Shown: piece by piece, positions 55,975 to 63,763 of the stretch
Position numbering within the stretch: the first letter of the stretch is position 1
Layout of the letters: every line of letters begins with the position of its first letter
Assembly (NCBI GenBank): GCA_963796285.1
Contig: CAWCKW010000006.1
Location: 32,001-96,000 of the forward strand
DNA from: Nitrospirota bacterium
GTDB taxonomy: Bacteria > Nitrospirota > UBA9217
DNA: 64,000 nt
Reading direction: 5' to 3'
Program-made: the position numbers and the translations under genes
Notes under the pieces: generated by a model
What the model saw: only the letters and a program-made list of their open reading frames with translations
What the model was told of the DNA's origin: nothing
Database searches by the model: none

Positions 55975-55990
55975 TGGCATCGCATATGCA
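55975..55990 (+). promoter_or_regulatory. sigma-54 (-24/-12) promoter
   Basis: TGGCAT-CGCAT-ATGCA, with exact GG-N10-GC spacing, just upstream of the operon. Confidence 0.7.
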
Positions 55991-56004
55991 CCATACACCC
56001 TGTC

Positions 56005-56334
56005 ATGAAGAACATCATTCTCTGCTCGTCTAATCCCATTTTGATAAAAAGCCTCTACAGCATGCTGCGGGAGGATGGGTACAATGTGGAGACCATCGAA
56101 CACCCGGCCCATGCGGTCCAGATGGTCATGCGCAGGCACTATCACTTCGTTATCGTTGATTCAGAGCCATTCGGCCTTTCCGCGGGAGACGCGGCGAAGA
56201 TCATCAAGGCCGTCGCGCCCCTGATGCCGGTCCTGTTCGTCGGTGATGACCGCATAGATCCACAGGTGCAGTCCGTAAAGACCCCGATCGACCTCGAAGC
56301 ATTCAAGCGAACGATCCACAGCATCGCGGTTTGA
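56005..56334 (+). CDS. Stand-alone atypical receiver-domain protein
   Basis: Receiver-like pattern (GYNVE, VIVD, PVLFV, KTPID) lacking the acidic DD pocket. Confidence 0.65.
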   Translation: MKNIILCSSNPILIKSLYSMLREDGYNVETIEHPAHAVQMVMRRHYHFVIVDSEPFGLSAGDAAKIIKAVAPLMPVLFVGDDRIDPQVQSVKTPIDLEAFKRTIHSIAV

Positions 56335-56368
56335 CTGTCCGACCCCAAAGGATACGAAAGGAGATGTG

Positions 56369-57397
56369 ATGAAACCAAAGGACGTTATACTCAAGGCATT
56401 CGAGGGAGGCAAGGCCGACCGGCTCCCGGTGACTCTTTTCGGCGCAGGCATGTGGAGCATCAAGCGGCACGGAACGTCGTTCGAGGCCCTGTCGCGGGAC
56501 GCGAACAAGATGACCGACATGCTTGTCGCCATGAGCGAGACGCTTAAGTGCGACATGGTTTACGCGGGCTCGGGCTACAATAACTTCCATGCGTCGGCCC
56601 TGGGCGGGAAGATCAAGTTCCGCGAGATGGGCGCACCGGACCTGGAGAACCACTTTGTCTCATCCGAGGAGGACCTCGCGAAGCTCATGCTCAGCGACCT
56701 CGACAAGGACGAGGTGATCACGACCGTCATTAAATCCCTGCGCCAGACCAAGGCAAAGATCGGCAATAATTACGTCGTCACCATGACGGCCTGGGGCCCC
56801 TTCACCCTCGGCGCGCGGCTTGTGGGCGAGGAAACGATGATGAAGGCCACGTTCAAAAAACCCGCTTTCGTCGAGAAGGTCGTTGATTTCGCCACCGATA
56901 TCCTGATCCATCTCTACGAGCCCATTGTCGCTGACAAGACCCTTGAGGTCATCAGTCTCGCGGACCCCACTGCGTCGGGCGATCTCATTTCCAGGAAACA
57001 GTTCGAGAAGTTCGCATTGCCGTACCTCAAAAAGTTCACTGACTGGGCCAAGTCAAAGAGCGTCCATACGCTGGTCCACATCTGCGGAAACACCACGGAC
57101 CGGCTGGACCTGTTCCCACAGACCGGCGCGAGCTGCATCAGCCTGGACCACAAAACGGACATCACCAAGGCCAAAGAGGCGCTGCACGGTAAAATGTGCT
57201 TCGCCGGGAACGTGGACCCCGTAAAGATCATGCTGAACGGCACGGTCCAGGACGTGGAGAATGCCTGCAAGGACATCATCACGGCCGCCGGTACCGACGG
57301 CGGGTTCGTGCTCATGCCGGGGTGCGACATTCCGCCTACCGTGCCCTACGACAACATCAAAAAGTTCATCCAGGTAGCACATGAGTGGAAAATGTAA
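56369..57397 (+). CDS. MtaA/CmuA (URO-D fold) methyltransferase 1
   Basis: GPFTL, DPTASGDLIS, Zn motif HICG, GNVDP, PGCDI. Confidence 0.85.
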   Translation: MKPKDVILKAFEGGKADRLPVTLFGAGMWSIKRHGTSFEALSRDANKMTDMLVAMSETLKCDMVYAGSGYNNFHASALGGKIKFREMGAPDLENHFVSSEEDLAKLMLSDLDKDEVITTVIKSLRQTKAKIGNNYVVTMTAWGPFTLGARLVGEETMMKATFKKPAFVEKVVDFATDILIHLYEPIVADKTLEVISLADPTASGDLISRKQFEKFALPYLKKFTDWAKSKSVHTLVHICGNTTDRLDLFPQTGASCISLDHKTDITKAKEALHGKMCFAGNVDPVKIMLNGTVQDVENACKDIITAAGTDGGFVLMPGCDIPPTVPYDNIKKFIQVAHEWKM

Positions 57398-60961: not shown

Positions 60962-61644
60962 AGACCTCGCTCAGGAGAGAGTTGCTGGACCATGGCGCCA
61001 CGGTCGTGGGAATCGCAGACCTTCGCGGGTACCTGAGCGGGGAGATCGCCCATCTGGACCGCGCAGTGTCGATCGGCGTGGACCGGAGGCTGAATGAAGA
61101 CACGCTCAGCCTGCTCGTGAAGCTCCAGAAGCGGGCAGTGCGGTTCCTGAAAACCCGGGGACACCGGACACTGGCCATCCCGCCGGACTCGGACCGGAAA
61201 AATGGCACGTTCATCTCAACGCTGTATTCCCTGTTCAACCACAAGATGGCGGCCACGTCTGCGGGTCTGGGGTGGATCGGCAAGAATGGACTTCTCATCA
61301 ACCCCGACTACGGGCCGCGTTTGTCTCTTGCCACGGTTCTGACGGACGCCCGGCTCAGCCCGGACGTGCCCATCGAGCGTTGCCTCTGTGGAGAGTGCCT
61401 TCTCTGCATAGAGCACTGCCCCTCAAAGGCTATAACCGGATCGGAGTGGTCACGGTCGTCGCCCTTCGTTGAACTGGTGAAGCTCAATGCCTGCAGGAGT
61501 CATAAGGCGGCGAAGAGGGCAATGGACAACAAACCAAATTGCGGATTGTGCATCAACATCTGCCCGTATGGGAGGAAAAGCGAAAGAGCATTGGAAGCAA
61601 GTAACCACGGAGTCACGGAGACACGGAGAGAAACACTGAAATGA
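60958..61644 (+). CDS. QueG/reductive-dehalogenase-like 2x[4Fe-4S] protein
   Basis: HKMAATSAGLGWIGKNGLLINPDYGPR...VLTD; CGECLLCIEHCP; CGLCINICP; ATGA overlap with the corrinoid gene. Confidence 0.75.
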   Translation: MKTSLRRELLDHGATVVGIADLRGYLSGEIAHLDRAVSIGVDRRLNEDTLSLLVKLQKRAVRFLKTRGHRTLAIPPDSDRKNGTFISTLYSLFNHKMAATSAGLGWIGKNGLLINPDYGPRLSLATVLTDARLSPDVPIERCLCGECLLCIEHCPSKAITGSEWSRSSPFVELVKLNACRSHKAAKRAMDNKPNCGLCINICPYGRKSERALEASNHGVTETRRETLK

Positions 61645-61746
61645 ATAGAGCCAAGGCTGATGATTTGCGATCTACGTTTGGTCGATCCTGTTCCTTGCCC
61701 TGCTTTCAATATCTCGGACTTCTCCGTGCCTCCGTGTCTCCGTGGT
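61604..61746. repeat. Inverted element of three 8-nt units (CACGGAG)
   Basis: accacggag-tcacggag-acacggag ... ctccgtgc-ctccgtgt-ctccgtggt. Confidence 0.75.
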
Positions 61747-61786
61747 GGATATAGATCCGAGACTTGAATATGTCGGGAGGAAGTGC

Positions 61787-63763
61787 ATGGTCAAGAAACA
61801 CAAAGTTATATTTCAGCCCTCGGGCAGCCGGGGTGAGGTAGAGGACGGCAAGACCATCCTCGAGGCAGCCCAGTCCCTGGGTGTTGATATTGAGGCGCTC
61901 TGCGGCAACAAGAAGGTCTGCGGCAAGTGCAAGGTGAGGATCGAAGAAGGGTATTTCGAAAAGGACAACATCGAATCGGGCATGGCCCACCTCTCGCCGC
62001 TCACCGAGGCGGAGAAGAAGCACATCAAGCCCGAGGACGGGCCCGGCATCAGGCTGTCCTGCACGGCTGAGATCCACGGCGACATAAAGGTCTTCGTTCC
62101 CGAACGATCGCGCGCGGGCAAACAGGTCGTGCGCAAGGCGGCCAAGGAGCTTACGATCAAGCTCGACCCGGCAGTCAAGAAGTACAACATCGAACTCACA
62201 AAGCCCACCCTGCATGACATGACCACCGGTGACTGGGAGCGCGTGCTCAAATTCCTCGACGACGACTATGGACTAAAGGGTCTCACGTTTGATTACCTCG
62301 TCCTGAAGGACCTTCAGGATACGCTGCGCAAGGGCGAATGGAAAGCCACGGTCACCGTCTGGATGGACAAGGAGATCATCAAGGTCGAGCCCGGGTTCGT
62401 TGAAGCAAGCTACGGTCTGGCCGTGGACATCGGCACCACGACCTGCGTGGGGTACCTCACGGACCTGAGCACGGGCAAGGTCGTGAACACCGAATCCATG
62501 ATGAACCCCCAGGTGCCCTACGGCGAGGACGTGATGTCGCGCATCACCTATGCCATGAGCAATCCCGGCGGCCTCGAGACCATGCAAAAGGCGGTCATCA
62601 TTGGTCTGAACGAGATCATCGAACGGGTGGTATCGGACATCGCGAAGGACGCGCCCCATCCCGGCTTTGTGATCGATGACCTCACCATCGTGTTCAACAC
62701 GGCCATGCACCACATCTTCCTGGGCATGAACCCGGAATACATCGGCAAATCGCCCTTCATCCCGGCGGTCCAGAGCTCGCTCGACATCAAGGCGCGCGAC
62801 CTGGGCCTGAAGATCAACCCGTCAGCCTACATTCACGTGCTGCCGATCGAGGCCGGCTTCGTGGGCGCAGACAACGTGGGCGTCCTGATCGCCGAGGAAC
62901 CCTACAACCAGGACGAAATGGTGCTGATCATCGATATCGGCACGAACGGCGAGCTGCTCCTGGGCAACCGGAACAAGGTCTGCTCCACGTCATGCGCCAC
63001 GGGCCCGGCCTTCGAGGGCGCCCAGATCAAGTTCGGCATGCGTGCTGCTCCTGGCGCGATCGAGACGGTCGAGATCGATCCCGCGACCAAAGAGCCGCGC
63101 TACAAGGTCATCGGCAAGGCCGACTGGCATACCCACATCGCGGAAGTGAAGGCCAAGGGTCTGTGCGGTTCCGGCATCATCGGCGTCGTGGCGGAAATGT
63201 TCAAAGCCGGCATCATCGATAAGAGCGGCAGGTTCGTGATGGACCTCGGCACGACGCGGGTCAGGAAGGACATCGACGGCAAGCCCGAGTACGTGCTCGC
63301 CTGGGCCGCGGAGACCTCCATCGGCCATGACATCACCATCACCCAGGGAGATGTTCGCGCGCTCCAGCTCGCCAAAGGGGCGCTCTACGCCGGCGCAAAA
63401 CTGATGATGAAGCGTCTCAACGTGACCAAGCTCGACCGCGTGATCCTGGCCGGCGCGTTCGGGAGCCACATCGACAAGGTGGCATCGCTCACCCTCGGCA
63501 TGTTCCCGGACTGCCCCATCGACATGGTCTACGCAGTGGGCAACGCGGCCGGCGACGGTTCGCGCATGGCGCTCCTGAACCGGGACAAGCGGCGCGAGGC
63601 GAACGAGCGGGCGCGGTGGGTCGAGTTCGTCGAGATCGCCACGGACCCGGCCTTTGAGAAGGAATTCATGCAGGCGATGCATATCCCGCATATGAAGGAC
63701 AAGTTCCCGAACCTGAAGGAGCTGCTCGCGAAAACGAACAGCCCGGTGGAGATCAAAGGATAA
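61787..63763 (+). CDS. ASKHA-domain reductive activator of corrinoid proteins (RACo/RamA-like, DUF4445) with N-terminal 2Fe-2S
   Basis: CGNKKVCGKC...RLSC; DIGTTT; GEDVMSRI; DIGTNGE; CATGPAFEG; GLCGSG; AGAFG; GNAAG. Confidence 0.92.
   Translation: MVKKHKVIFQPSGSRGEVEDGKTILEAAQSLGVDIEALCGNKKVCGKCKVRIEEGYFEKDNIESGMAHLSPLTEAEKKHIKPEDGPGIRLSCTAEIHGDIKVFVPERSRAGKQVVRKAAKELTIKLDPAVKKYNIELTKPTLHDMTTGDWERVLKFLDDDYGLKGLTFDYLVLKDLQDTLRKGEWKATVTVWMDKEIIKVEPGFVEASYGLAVDIGTTTCVGYLTDLSTGKVVNTESMMNPQVPYGEDVMSRITYAMSNPGGLETMQKAVIIGLNEIIERVVSDIAKDAPHPGFVIDDLTIVFNTAMHHIFLGMNPEYIGKSPFIPAVQSSLDIKARDLGLKINPSAYIHVLPIEAGFVGADNVGVLIAEEPYNQDEMVLIIDIGTNGELLLGNRNKVCSTSCATGPAFEGAQIKFGMRAAPGAIETVEIDPATKEPRYKVIGKADWHTHIAEVKAKGLCGSGIIGVVAEMFKAGIIDKSGRFVMDLGTTRVRKDIDGKPEYVLAWAAETSIGHDITITQGDVRALQLAKGALYAGAKLMMKRLNVTKLDRVILAGAFGSHIDKVASLTLGMFPDCPIDMVYAVGNAAGDGSRMALLNRDKRREANERARWVEFVEIATDPAFEKEFMQAMHIPHMKDKFPNLKELLAKTNSPVEIKG

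Follow-up and report, generated by a model that had tools for sequence, protein, structure and literature searches.

Gene content and extent of the operon

The 64,000-nucleotide stretch analysed here, referred to as the window, covers positions 32,001 to 96,000 of contig CAWCKW010000006.1 (G000:C6:32001-96000) in the 3.58-Mb, 13-contig assembly GCA_963796285.1 of a Nitrospirota bacterium. We found that it carries the front two-thirds of an operon of about 13 kb for corrinoid-dependent methyl transfer, which continues into genes of coenzyme M (CoM)-type precursor synthesis. An earlier interpretation made from the letters alone, the sequence-only reading, had named seven co-oriented gene types at this place, and listing of the open reading frames (ORFs) together with Pfam and NCBIfam scans confirmed all of them on the + strand: two MtaA/CmuA-family methyltransferases (MT-A and MT-B), an MtrH-like methyltransferase, a corrinoid protein, an activase (RACo), a CMD protein and a QueG-like Fe-S protein (Table 1). 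The same reading had regarded the cluster as complete at 63763; the operon was found to continue on the + strand for about 5 kb beyond the window end, into locus L001. Its gene list also omitted the operon's first gene, which encodes a receiver-like protein of 109 amino acids (aa). The CoM-type genes were missed because they lie just outside the window. Scans for sigma-70 promoters and terminators across the operon returned counts at shuffle level and no internal boundary, and no transporter gene was found between the promoter and ComDE.

Table 1. Features of the operon and its upstream region. Positions refer to the window; those prefixed L001 refer to that locus and are converted to window coordinates by adding 61999.
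Feature	Position	Strand	Basis
SsuA-family-like (sulfonate-binding-protein-like) gene	48359..49312	-	NMT1_2 7.5e-20; TIGR01728 84 bits, below cut-off 163.5
PAS-GAF sensor histidine kinase	49303..51477	+	Pfam HATPase_c, HisKA, GAF, PAS
NtrC-type sigma-54-dependent response regulator	51482..52816	+	Response_reg, Sigma54_activat, HTH_8
Sigma-54 (-24/-12) promoter TGGCAT-N5-ATGCA	55975..55990	+	Sequence
Receiver-like small protein, 109 aa, first gene of the operon	56005..56334	+	Weak Response_reg match, 4e-5
MT-A, divergent MtaA/CmuA-family Zn methyltransferase	56366..57397	+	URO-D family, E 5e-63
CMD/AhpD-like protein	57473..57991	+	Pfam CMD
MtrH/MtgA-type methylcorrinoid:tetrahydropterin methyltransferase	58206..59156	+	NF002142 320 bits, above cut-off 287
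MT-B, MtaA-type Zn methyltransferase	59236..60267	+	NF004889 268.2 bits, above 244; TIGR01463 252.1 bits, above 235.4
Corrinoid (B12-binding) protein	60239..60961	+	B12-binding_2 and B12-binding; TIGR02370 217 bits, above cut-off
Mini QueG/RdhA/CblC-like protein, two [4Fe-4S] motifs	60958..61644	+	TIGR00276, TIGR02486 about 1e-17
RACo-type ATP-dependent reductive activase of corrinoid proteins	61742..63763	+	Fer2, RACo_linker, Raco_middle, RACo_C_ter
DUF6951 gene, start only, runs off the window	63901..64000	+	
DsrM-like membrane protein	L001:2258-3043	+	DsrM-like at 2e-13
Fer4 two-cluster ferredoxin	L001:3033-3452	+	Fer4_8
CCG protein, two CCG domains	L001:3496-4236	+	Best family TfrB, 144 bits
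Cysteate synthase	L001:4346-about 5540	+	TIGR03844 368 bits, above 324.9
Fused ComDE (sulfopyruvate decarboxylase)	L001:5579-6716	+	ComE TIGR03846 231.3 bits, above 221.5

Conservation and regulation

MT-A was searched over 401 genomes of the phylum, and an orthologue was defined by a best E-value of at most 1e-80 with at least 55% identity. Matches at E <=1e-20 were observed in 87 genomes, 75 at orthologue level and 12 at weak paralogue level. The sequence-only reading had proposed a search for conserved synteny, and the order of genes from MT-A through DUF6951 was indeed the same in all 20 fetched 20-kb loci, which came from different genera and families. Cysteate synthase and ComDE followed directly in 17 of the 20, and the DsrM-like gene was detected in 15. 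Further loci were the best 80 (71-95% identity) of 195 stretches encoding a relative, with one genome per species scanned; 72 of them are titled as Nitrospirota, Nitrospirae or Thermodesulfovibrio-type metagenome-assembled genomes (MAGs), eight carry other labels, and none is an isolate. Among those of the 80 loci whose contigs extend far enough, CMD stood after MT-A in 70 of 72, Desulfobacterota-labelled MAGs without the other operon genes among them, and we recovered the MtrH-like gene in 63/67, MT-B in 61/63, the corrinoid protein in 58/59, the Fe-S protein in 52/56, RACo in 53/54, DUF6951 in 49/49, Fer4 and CCG in 44/47 each and cysteate synthase in 42/47. In the lineage of L047, the interval between DUF6951 and cysteate synthase holds an SsuA-family sulfonate ABC transporter (194 bits, above 163.5), a QmoC-like protein and a fused TfrB/HdrD-like protein.

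Cysteate synthase (TIGR03844 above cut-off) was found in 67 of the 401 genomes. Counting four fragmentary high-scoring matches as present and leaving out G334 (full-length, 135 bits), an MT-A orthologue and cysteate synthase occurred together in 69 genomes, MT-A alone in six, cysteate synthase alone in two and neither in 324; these genomes are relatives and do not count as independent. Both genomes with cysteate synthase alone are 65-74% complete. Among those with MT-A alone, G224 is 74% complete, two have a contig that ends in or near the cluster, and the other three belong to one genus. In the genus without cysteate synthase, three other genes come after the operon instead (L040:11372-14501), for a variant radical SAM protein, a DVU_1556/MduS-like SAM-dependent methyltransferase and a B12-binding radical SAM protein.

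The sigma-54 promoter that had been proposed in front of the operon was borne out by these loci. Position 55975 is the first base of its -24/-12 element, and in 60 of 78 related loci the motif TGGCAY-N5-WTGCW precedes the first gene by about 30 nt, its spacer varying in sequence. We consider the promoter real because the motif is conserved with varying spacers and because a kinase and an NtrC-type regulator are encoded upstream. The kinase adjoins the operon in many related loci. A response-regulator orthologue (at least 55% identity) was present in 37 of 80, an SsuA-like gene (at least 40% identity) lay beside the kinase-regulator pair in 13 of 80, and the 109-aa receiver-like gene was found in 56 of the 76 loci extending that far.

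The two MtaA-family methyltransferases

The zinc motif H-x-C...C, which the sequence-only reading had noticed in both methyltransferases, was confirmed by alignment with MtaA, CmuA and the Mlp proteins, and H238, C240 and C320 of MT-A were invariant in 15 orthologues. Since CmuA and the Mlps also keep this motif, it does not tell the substrate. MT-B exceeded two subfamily cut-offs (Table 1), and MT-A remained under both (NF004889, 187.3 bits against 244; TIGR01463, 191.0 against 235.4). With the MtbA equivalog model (cut-off 600), MT-B scored 185.9 and MT-A 163.6 bits. MT-B aligned over its full length with Methanosarcina mazei MtaA (4ay7) at 162 bits, with the Zn ligands aligned, and MT-A gave 92 bits. 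Searched with phmmer against 1.84 billion representatives, MT-B had 3829 matches at E <=0.001 and 192 at <=1e-30; when 83 of the best 150 were scanned with NCBIfam, three exceeded the MtaA equivalog cut-off.

A quick IQ-TREE phylogeny (84 rows, LG+G4, HemE as outgroup) was built from sequences that included 59 of these 150 representatives, nine MT-A and eight MT-B orthologues, CmuA, CmuC and three Mlps of Acetoanaerobium. MT-B fell within the MtaA/NF004889 radiation, near but outside the clade of the three proteins that passed the MtaA cut-off. MT-A, on a long stem, joined CmuA and two of the Mlps in a group of 15 rows (SH-aLRT, the approximate likelihood-ratio support, 99), and this group rests on long branches (0.94 and 1.68). 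Identity to CmuA was 22% for MT-A and 25% for MT-B, and identity to the Acetoanaerobium Mlps was 22-29%. MT-B did not group with the third Mlp, which is located between the corrinoid protein and the activase. CdmB of Acetobacterium dehalogenans gave a match of 28 bits only.

Two other identities were considered for these enzymes. The genome has three URO-D genes, namely MT-A, MT-B and a true HemE at 473 bits, and in view of the separate HemE gene we rejected the identification of either methyltransferase as HemE. A substrate-specific first methyltransferase (MT1) lying just outside the window was likewise rejected, and the earlier statement that no MtaB/MttB-type enzyme is present was borne out, since neither the genome nor 12 relatives yielded a gene of the MttB or MtaB family. 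An MtaA-like enzyme must therefore act on the substrate, and we regard MT-A as the candidate MT1 and MT-B, from its family placement, as the candidate CoM-type thiol methyltransferase. In one further protein of 662 aa (P0001), an MtrH-like part (NF002142, residues 4-309) and an MT-B-like part (NF004889, residues 324-661) are joined; it may be a natural MtrH+MT-B fusion or an artefact of gene calling.

Partner proteins

The MtrH-like enzyme matched MtrH (8z9u) at 171 bits and a Desulfitobacterium-type methylcorrinoid:tetrahydrofolate methyltransferase (6sj8) at 128 bits in the PDB; it scored 147 bits with NF047990 and missed the MtgA equivalog cut-off of 550. All four Pfam domains of the RACo protein exceeded their cut-offs, and the protein was AcsV-like at 481 bits. 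Among bacterial methylcorrinoid:tetrahydrofolate systems, MtgABC of Desulfitobacterium hafniense is like the operon in its MtrH-family second methyltransferase, its corrinoid protein (TIGR02370) and its activase of the RACo type, but its MT1 belongs to the MttB family.

In the Fe-S protein, the motifs IPPDSDR and HKxAATxAGLGWIGKNGLL were invariant, together with two cluster motifs, and sequence matches in the PDB were to QueG and PceA. The structural model matched QueG, PceA, NpRdhA and, more weakly, MMACHC over almost its whole length (QueG 5t8y, E 4e-8 over 210 columns; MMACHC, 7e-4), with low confidence in its Fe-S half (predicted local distance difference test, pLDDT, below 50 at residues 142-228). 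The model suggests that this mini-QueG protein may bind B12 and act as a small redox protein that perhaps conditions the cofactor or feeds RACo. For DUF6951, residues Cys20, Cys44, His81 and Cys84 were invariant. Its model (pLDDT 87) gave uniform but weak matches to IscU, SufE and SufU, and Foldseek returned nothing at E <=0.001 (best E 4e-3, template-modelling score 0.57). An IscU/SufE-like reading is suggested because the weak matches agree with one another and with the Cys/His pattern.

In the CMD protein, residues C99, H102 and C146 were invariant, and the protein was weakly similar to AhpD domains from selenoprotein families. In MAGs with the labels Thermodesulfobacteriota or Proteobacteria, from which the remaining operon genes are absent, MT-A (72% identity) and CMD were also observed together, flanked by genes for a Na+/solute symporter and for a DsrE-like protein (L120:1539-5879 and L126:7807-12290); L126 also has an acyl-CoA ligase and a CoA transferase near the pair. 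Because the pair occurs without the other operon genes in Desulfobacterota-labelled MAGs, MT-A and CMD appear to form a separable sub-module. Its substrate is probably imported and ionic.

Coenzyme M precursor genes and Hdr-like module

Behind DUF6951, the operon encodes an HdrED/DsrMK-like module, which was matched at the level of domains with no equivalog cut-off reached, followed by cysteate synthase and ComDE. The cysteate synthase score of 368 bits was obtained from a truncated ORF, and relatives scored 443-492 bits. The ComD alpha part reached 132.9 bits on an ORF cut by a frameshift, below 147.95, and in relatives ComDE is a single fused frame. Each of the two genes has one +1 frameshift, located at a G-run, and the extra base is missing from all public contigs that cover the sites (three DNA runs and one RNA-library run). 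Other genes of the assembly are split in the same way: those for a YifB-like Mg-chelatase, a hybrid-cluster protein and PurL form overlapping ORFs at 25878-27411, 33520-35207 and 38012-40664 of the window, and dsrA and metF are split at G000:C13:69167-70310 and 508512-509284. As the public contigs are intact and dsrA, metF, hcp, purL and yifB are split likewise, we attribute the two frameshifts to assembly errors, and pseudogenisation of the CoM genes was rejected. Homopolymer indel errors seem to be frequent in this assembly, so a gene that is broken in this genome should not be taken for a pseudogene.

Of cysteate synthase and ComDE, the RNA-library contigs (run X19) covered parts only, with 90-97% identity, and the library may also contain DNA, so that these contigs are at most a weak hint of expression. 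Elsewhere in the genome, a ferredoxin-domain match lies in a 385-aa frame that reads through one TGA (G000:C12:1142587-1142769); this frame is possibly a selenoprotein or a further assembly error.

Host

The operon hosts are uncultured Nitrospirota of the Thermodesulfovibrionia type that carry Dsr and Wood-Ljungdahl genes. AcsB, MetF and DsrA were each found in all five genomes searched, and SelA was found in four of the five but not in G039, which is 94% complete. The sequence-only reading had predicted that the methyl group is fed into methyl-tetrahydrofolate, and such an outlet is supported by the MtrH/MtgA-type enzyme in the operon and by AcsB and MetF in the host. It had also described an NO-reducing host, which fits a NorB-type c-like-domain cytochrome c gene adjoining a COX1-family ORF (window 27693-29528).

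Comparison with known methyl-transfer systems

The systems of methylotrophic methanogens (MtaA/MtbA/MtsA, corrinoid protein and RamA) are alike in the MtaA-family MT-B, the corrinoid protein and the activase. The operon shares cysteate synthase and ComE, both above their equivalog cut-offs, with Methanosarcina-type CoM synthesis, and its cytochrome-b-like membrane protein, dicluster protein and CCG protein resemble HdrED/TfrB. The methanogens differ in having the membrane-bound Mtr complex, whereas the operon encodes a soluble MtrH/MtgA-like pterin enzyme in a bacterial host in which no Mcr was found. In addition, the activase is of the bacterial RACo type, MMP16/ComF was not found, and MT-A, CMD, mini-QueG and DUF6951 are extra.

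The nearest described system, as far as the accessible text of Kountz and Balskus (PMC10418091) goes, is that of the type 1 mlp (sdm) clusters of anaerobic non-methanogens, which, like the operon, combine several MtaA-like methyltransferases of the His-Cys-Cys type with a single corrinoid protein and a single Ram/RACE activase. These clusters are described there as having no folate methyltransferase, and methyl-selenium or methyl-sulfur chemistry is proposed for them; that text does not mention CoM-type synthesis genes or an Hdr-like module. A cluster of this kind (Mlp, corrinoid protein, Mlp, RACE, Mlp) was observed in Acetoanaerobium noterae (NZ_CP154629.1:87633-106622), a 2.63-Mb record filed as a plasmid in which no MtrH-like gene was found. 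If the operon were a relative of these clusters, its role would be to recover selenium (or sulfur) from methyl-selenides, and the methyl group would be disposed of on tetrahydrofolate. The grouping of MT-A with two Mlps of the Acetoanaerobium cluster, SelA in the host and the weak resemblance of CMD to AhpD domains of selenoprotein families are consistent with this explanation. It is nevertheless improbable in our estimate, given the low identity to the Mlps, the folate methyltransferase that the clusters lack in the accessible description, the placement of MT-B apart from the Mlp between corrinoid protein and activase, and a cluster without selenium genes. Moreover, G039 has the module, and SelA was not found in that one, 94% complete genome.

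The sequence-only reading had also likened the gene set to the chloromethane (cmu) and dichloromethane (mec) systems, and this likeness holds. CmuB of pCMU01 is an MtrH-family protein, and the operon's MtrH-like enzyme is 27% identical to the pCMU01 gene annotated MtrH. According to the accessible part of the mec report (bioRxiv 10.1101/2021.08.30.458270), the mec cassette has ten listed products, without sulfonate or Hdr-like genes, and it shares a kinase and regulator, an MtaA/CmuA enzyme, an MtrH enzyme, a corrinoid protein and RACo with the operon. In a halomethane system built along these lines, MT-A would dehalogenate chloromethane (or dichloromethane) and load the corrinoid protein, from which the MtrH-like enzyme would produce methyl-tetrahydrofolate. 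Besides the parallel architecture, the 15-row group of MT-A and CmuA, the two-component system with the sigma-54 promoter and the membership of the Fe-S protein in the QueG/reductive-dehalogenase fold group agree with such a system. Against it stand the low identities to CmuA and the long branches behind the group, the 28-bit CdmB match and the build of CmuA, which is one 617-aa methyltransferase-corrinoid fusion while the operon has separate genes. The listed mec products further include the cation transporter MecJ, MecG and the extra methyltransferases MecC and MecI, and the operon has no MecJ-like transporter. Furthermore, its conserved companions are all sulfur- or sulfonate-linked, and a gaseous substrate is made less plausible by the solute symporter that adjoins MT-A in other phyla. 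We therefore regard a halomethane substrate as very improbable. Of the two substrate classes that had been put forward, methyl-sulfur compounds and halomethanes, the first gained support from the sulfur- and sulfonate-linked companions (cysteate synthase, sulfopyruvate decarboxylase, the HdrD-like module, SsuA-like proteins and, in other phyla, DsrE with a solute symporter next to MT-A), and nothing specific pointed to the second.

Proposed methyl-transfer pathway and its alternatives

Our preferred reading, to which we assign a probability of about 0.45, is that the operon encodes a thiol-type system that would link a small methyl-sulfur compound, methyl-tetrahydrofolate and a self-made CoM-type thiol. 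In the proposed mechanism, RACo would hold the cobalt of the corrinoid protein at Co(I) by using ATP and a low-potential electron, and MT-A would transfer the methyl group of a small methylated sulfur compound to Co(I). The MtrH-like enzyme would then pass the methyl group to tetrahydrofolate for oxidation or assimilation by the Wood-Ljungdahl enzymes. MT-B would exchange the methyl group with a self-made sulfonate thiol of the CoM type, which would make it a soluble counterpart of the Mtr reaction of methanogens. The Hdr-like module would keep this thiol reduced or help to make it from sulfoacetaldehyde. Judged from the gene content, the sulfonate product of the operon may be CoM itself. A selenium or halide donor is less likely than a methyl-sulfur one, and the operon hints at an undescribed bacterial methyl-sulfur metabolism.

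Several results weigh against this pathway. MT-B scored 244.8 bits with the MtaA_Meth equivalog model (MT-A 165.5), below the cut-off of 400. Three of the six genomes with MT-A alone (G030, G039 and G085) form one genus that keeps the methyl-transfer part but has no cysteate synthase; the Hdr-like module is missing from two loci; and cysteate synthase was found in none of four Desulfobacterota-labelled genomes with MT-A (72%) or an MT-B-like protein (48-52%). As for the last reaction in CoM synthesis, MMP16 exceeded the TIGR03287 cut-off in none of the five genomes, where matches were only to its ferredoxin part, and COG1900 (PF01837) was found in none of the five. As no known CoM synthase was found in these genomes, sulfoacetaldehyde could have another fate. 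It is stated in the accessible part of PMC11844431 that sulfide at high concentration can substitute for MMP16. McrA was likewise found in none of the five genomes, and with it no known consumer of methyl-CoM.

The same results bear on a simpler explanation, in which the operon is a plain methyl-sulfur demethylase. MT-A and MT-B would each act on a different thioether (for example methanethiol, dimethyl sulfide or methylmercaptopropionate), the methyl group would go to tetrahydrofolate, and CoM would not be a carrier; the sulfonate genes and the Hdr-like module would have some other function, for example in making an osmolyte, in sulfite handling or in the recycling of the thiol product. This explanation agrees with the retained His-Cys-Cys Zn sites, with the failure to find an MT1 of another family or a CoM synthase, and with the genus that has the module without cysteate synthase. 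It also suits the Desulfobacterota-labelled MAGs, where MT-A and CMD occur without cysteate synthase near the symporter, the DsrE-like protein, the acyl-CoA ligase and the CoA transferase. We nevertheless consider it unlikely, for it does not explain why cysteate synthase and ComDE occur almost only with this module, and next to it, across the phylum, and MT-B was placed in the radiation of CoM methyltransferases.

The direction of methyl transfer may also be questioned. In a biosynthetic mode, methyl-tetrahydrofolate from the Wood-Ljungdahl pathway would S-methylate a thiol (a CoM-type sulfonate or sulfide), which would yield a methylated sulfur product or serve as a sink for methyl groups. 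In principle the enzymes can run in either direction, a direct route from folate to thiol would suit the MtrH+MT-B fusion, and the thiol precursor would be made by the operon itself. This mode would leave the second, divergent methyltransferase and its own partner without a role; in addition, the tight sigma-54 and two-component control is more typical of substrate-induced catabolism, and a known consumer of methyl-CoM was not found (McrA in none of the five genomes). We give it a slim chance.

The thiol-type pathway can be extended to the phylum in a form that we hold as a doubtful proposal, drawn from the gene content. Many uncultured sulfate-reducing Nitrospirota may make CoM and, though lacking methyl-CoM reductase, employ it to carry methyl groups. 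Such a system would combine a soluble substitute for Mtr made up of the MtrH-like enzyme, the corrinoid protein and MT-B, an HdrED-like tie to the quinone pool and a thiol-forming step carried out by DUF6951 and/or the Hdr-like module.

Implications

A search of openly accessible literature, with paywalled papers and the supplements of PMC10418091 outside its scope, found nothing that links Nitrospirota, Thermodesulfovibrio or bacteria generally to cysteate synthase and ComDE together with MtaA/MtrH. The operon type was found in about one-fifth of the sampled genomes, and the phylum is widespread in soil, peat, sediment and groundwater.

CoM is known from methanogens, alkane-oxidising archaea and bacterial alkene oxidation. 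The proposed use in Nitrospirota, if true, would add a third biological role of CoM to those in methanogenesis/alkane metabolism and in bacterial alkene oxidation; it would extend the range of known uses of this cofactor and would provide candidates for an alternative final step of its synthesis. It would also offer a candidate route for anaerobic bacterial methyl-sulfur turnover coupled to sulfate reduction. Collectively, these results revealed a conserved bacterial operon that unites CoM-type synthesis genes with MtaA/MtrH-type methyl transfer and that constitutes a defined gene set open to direct biochemical testing.

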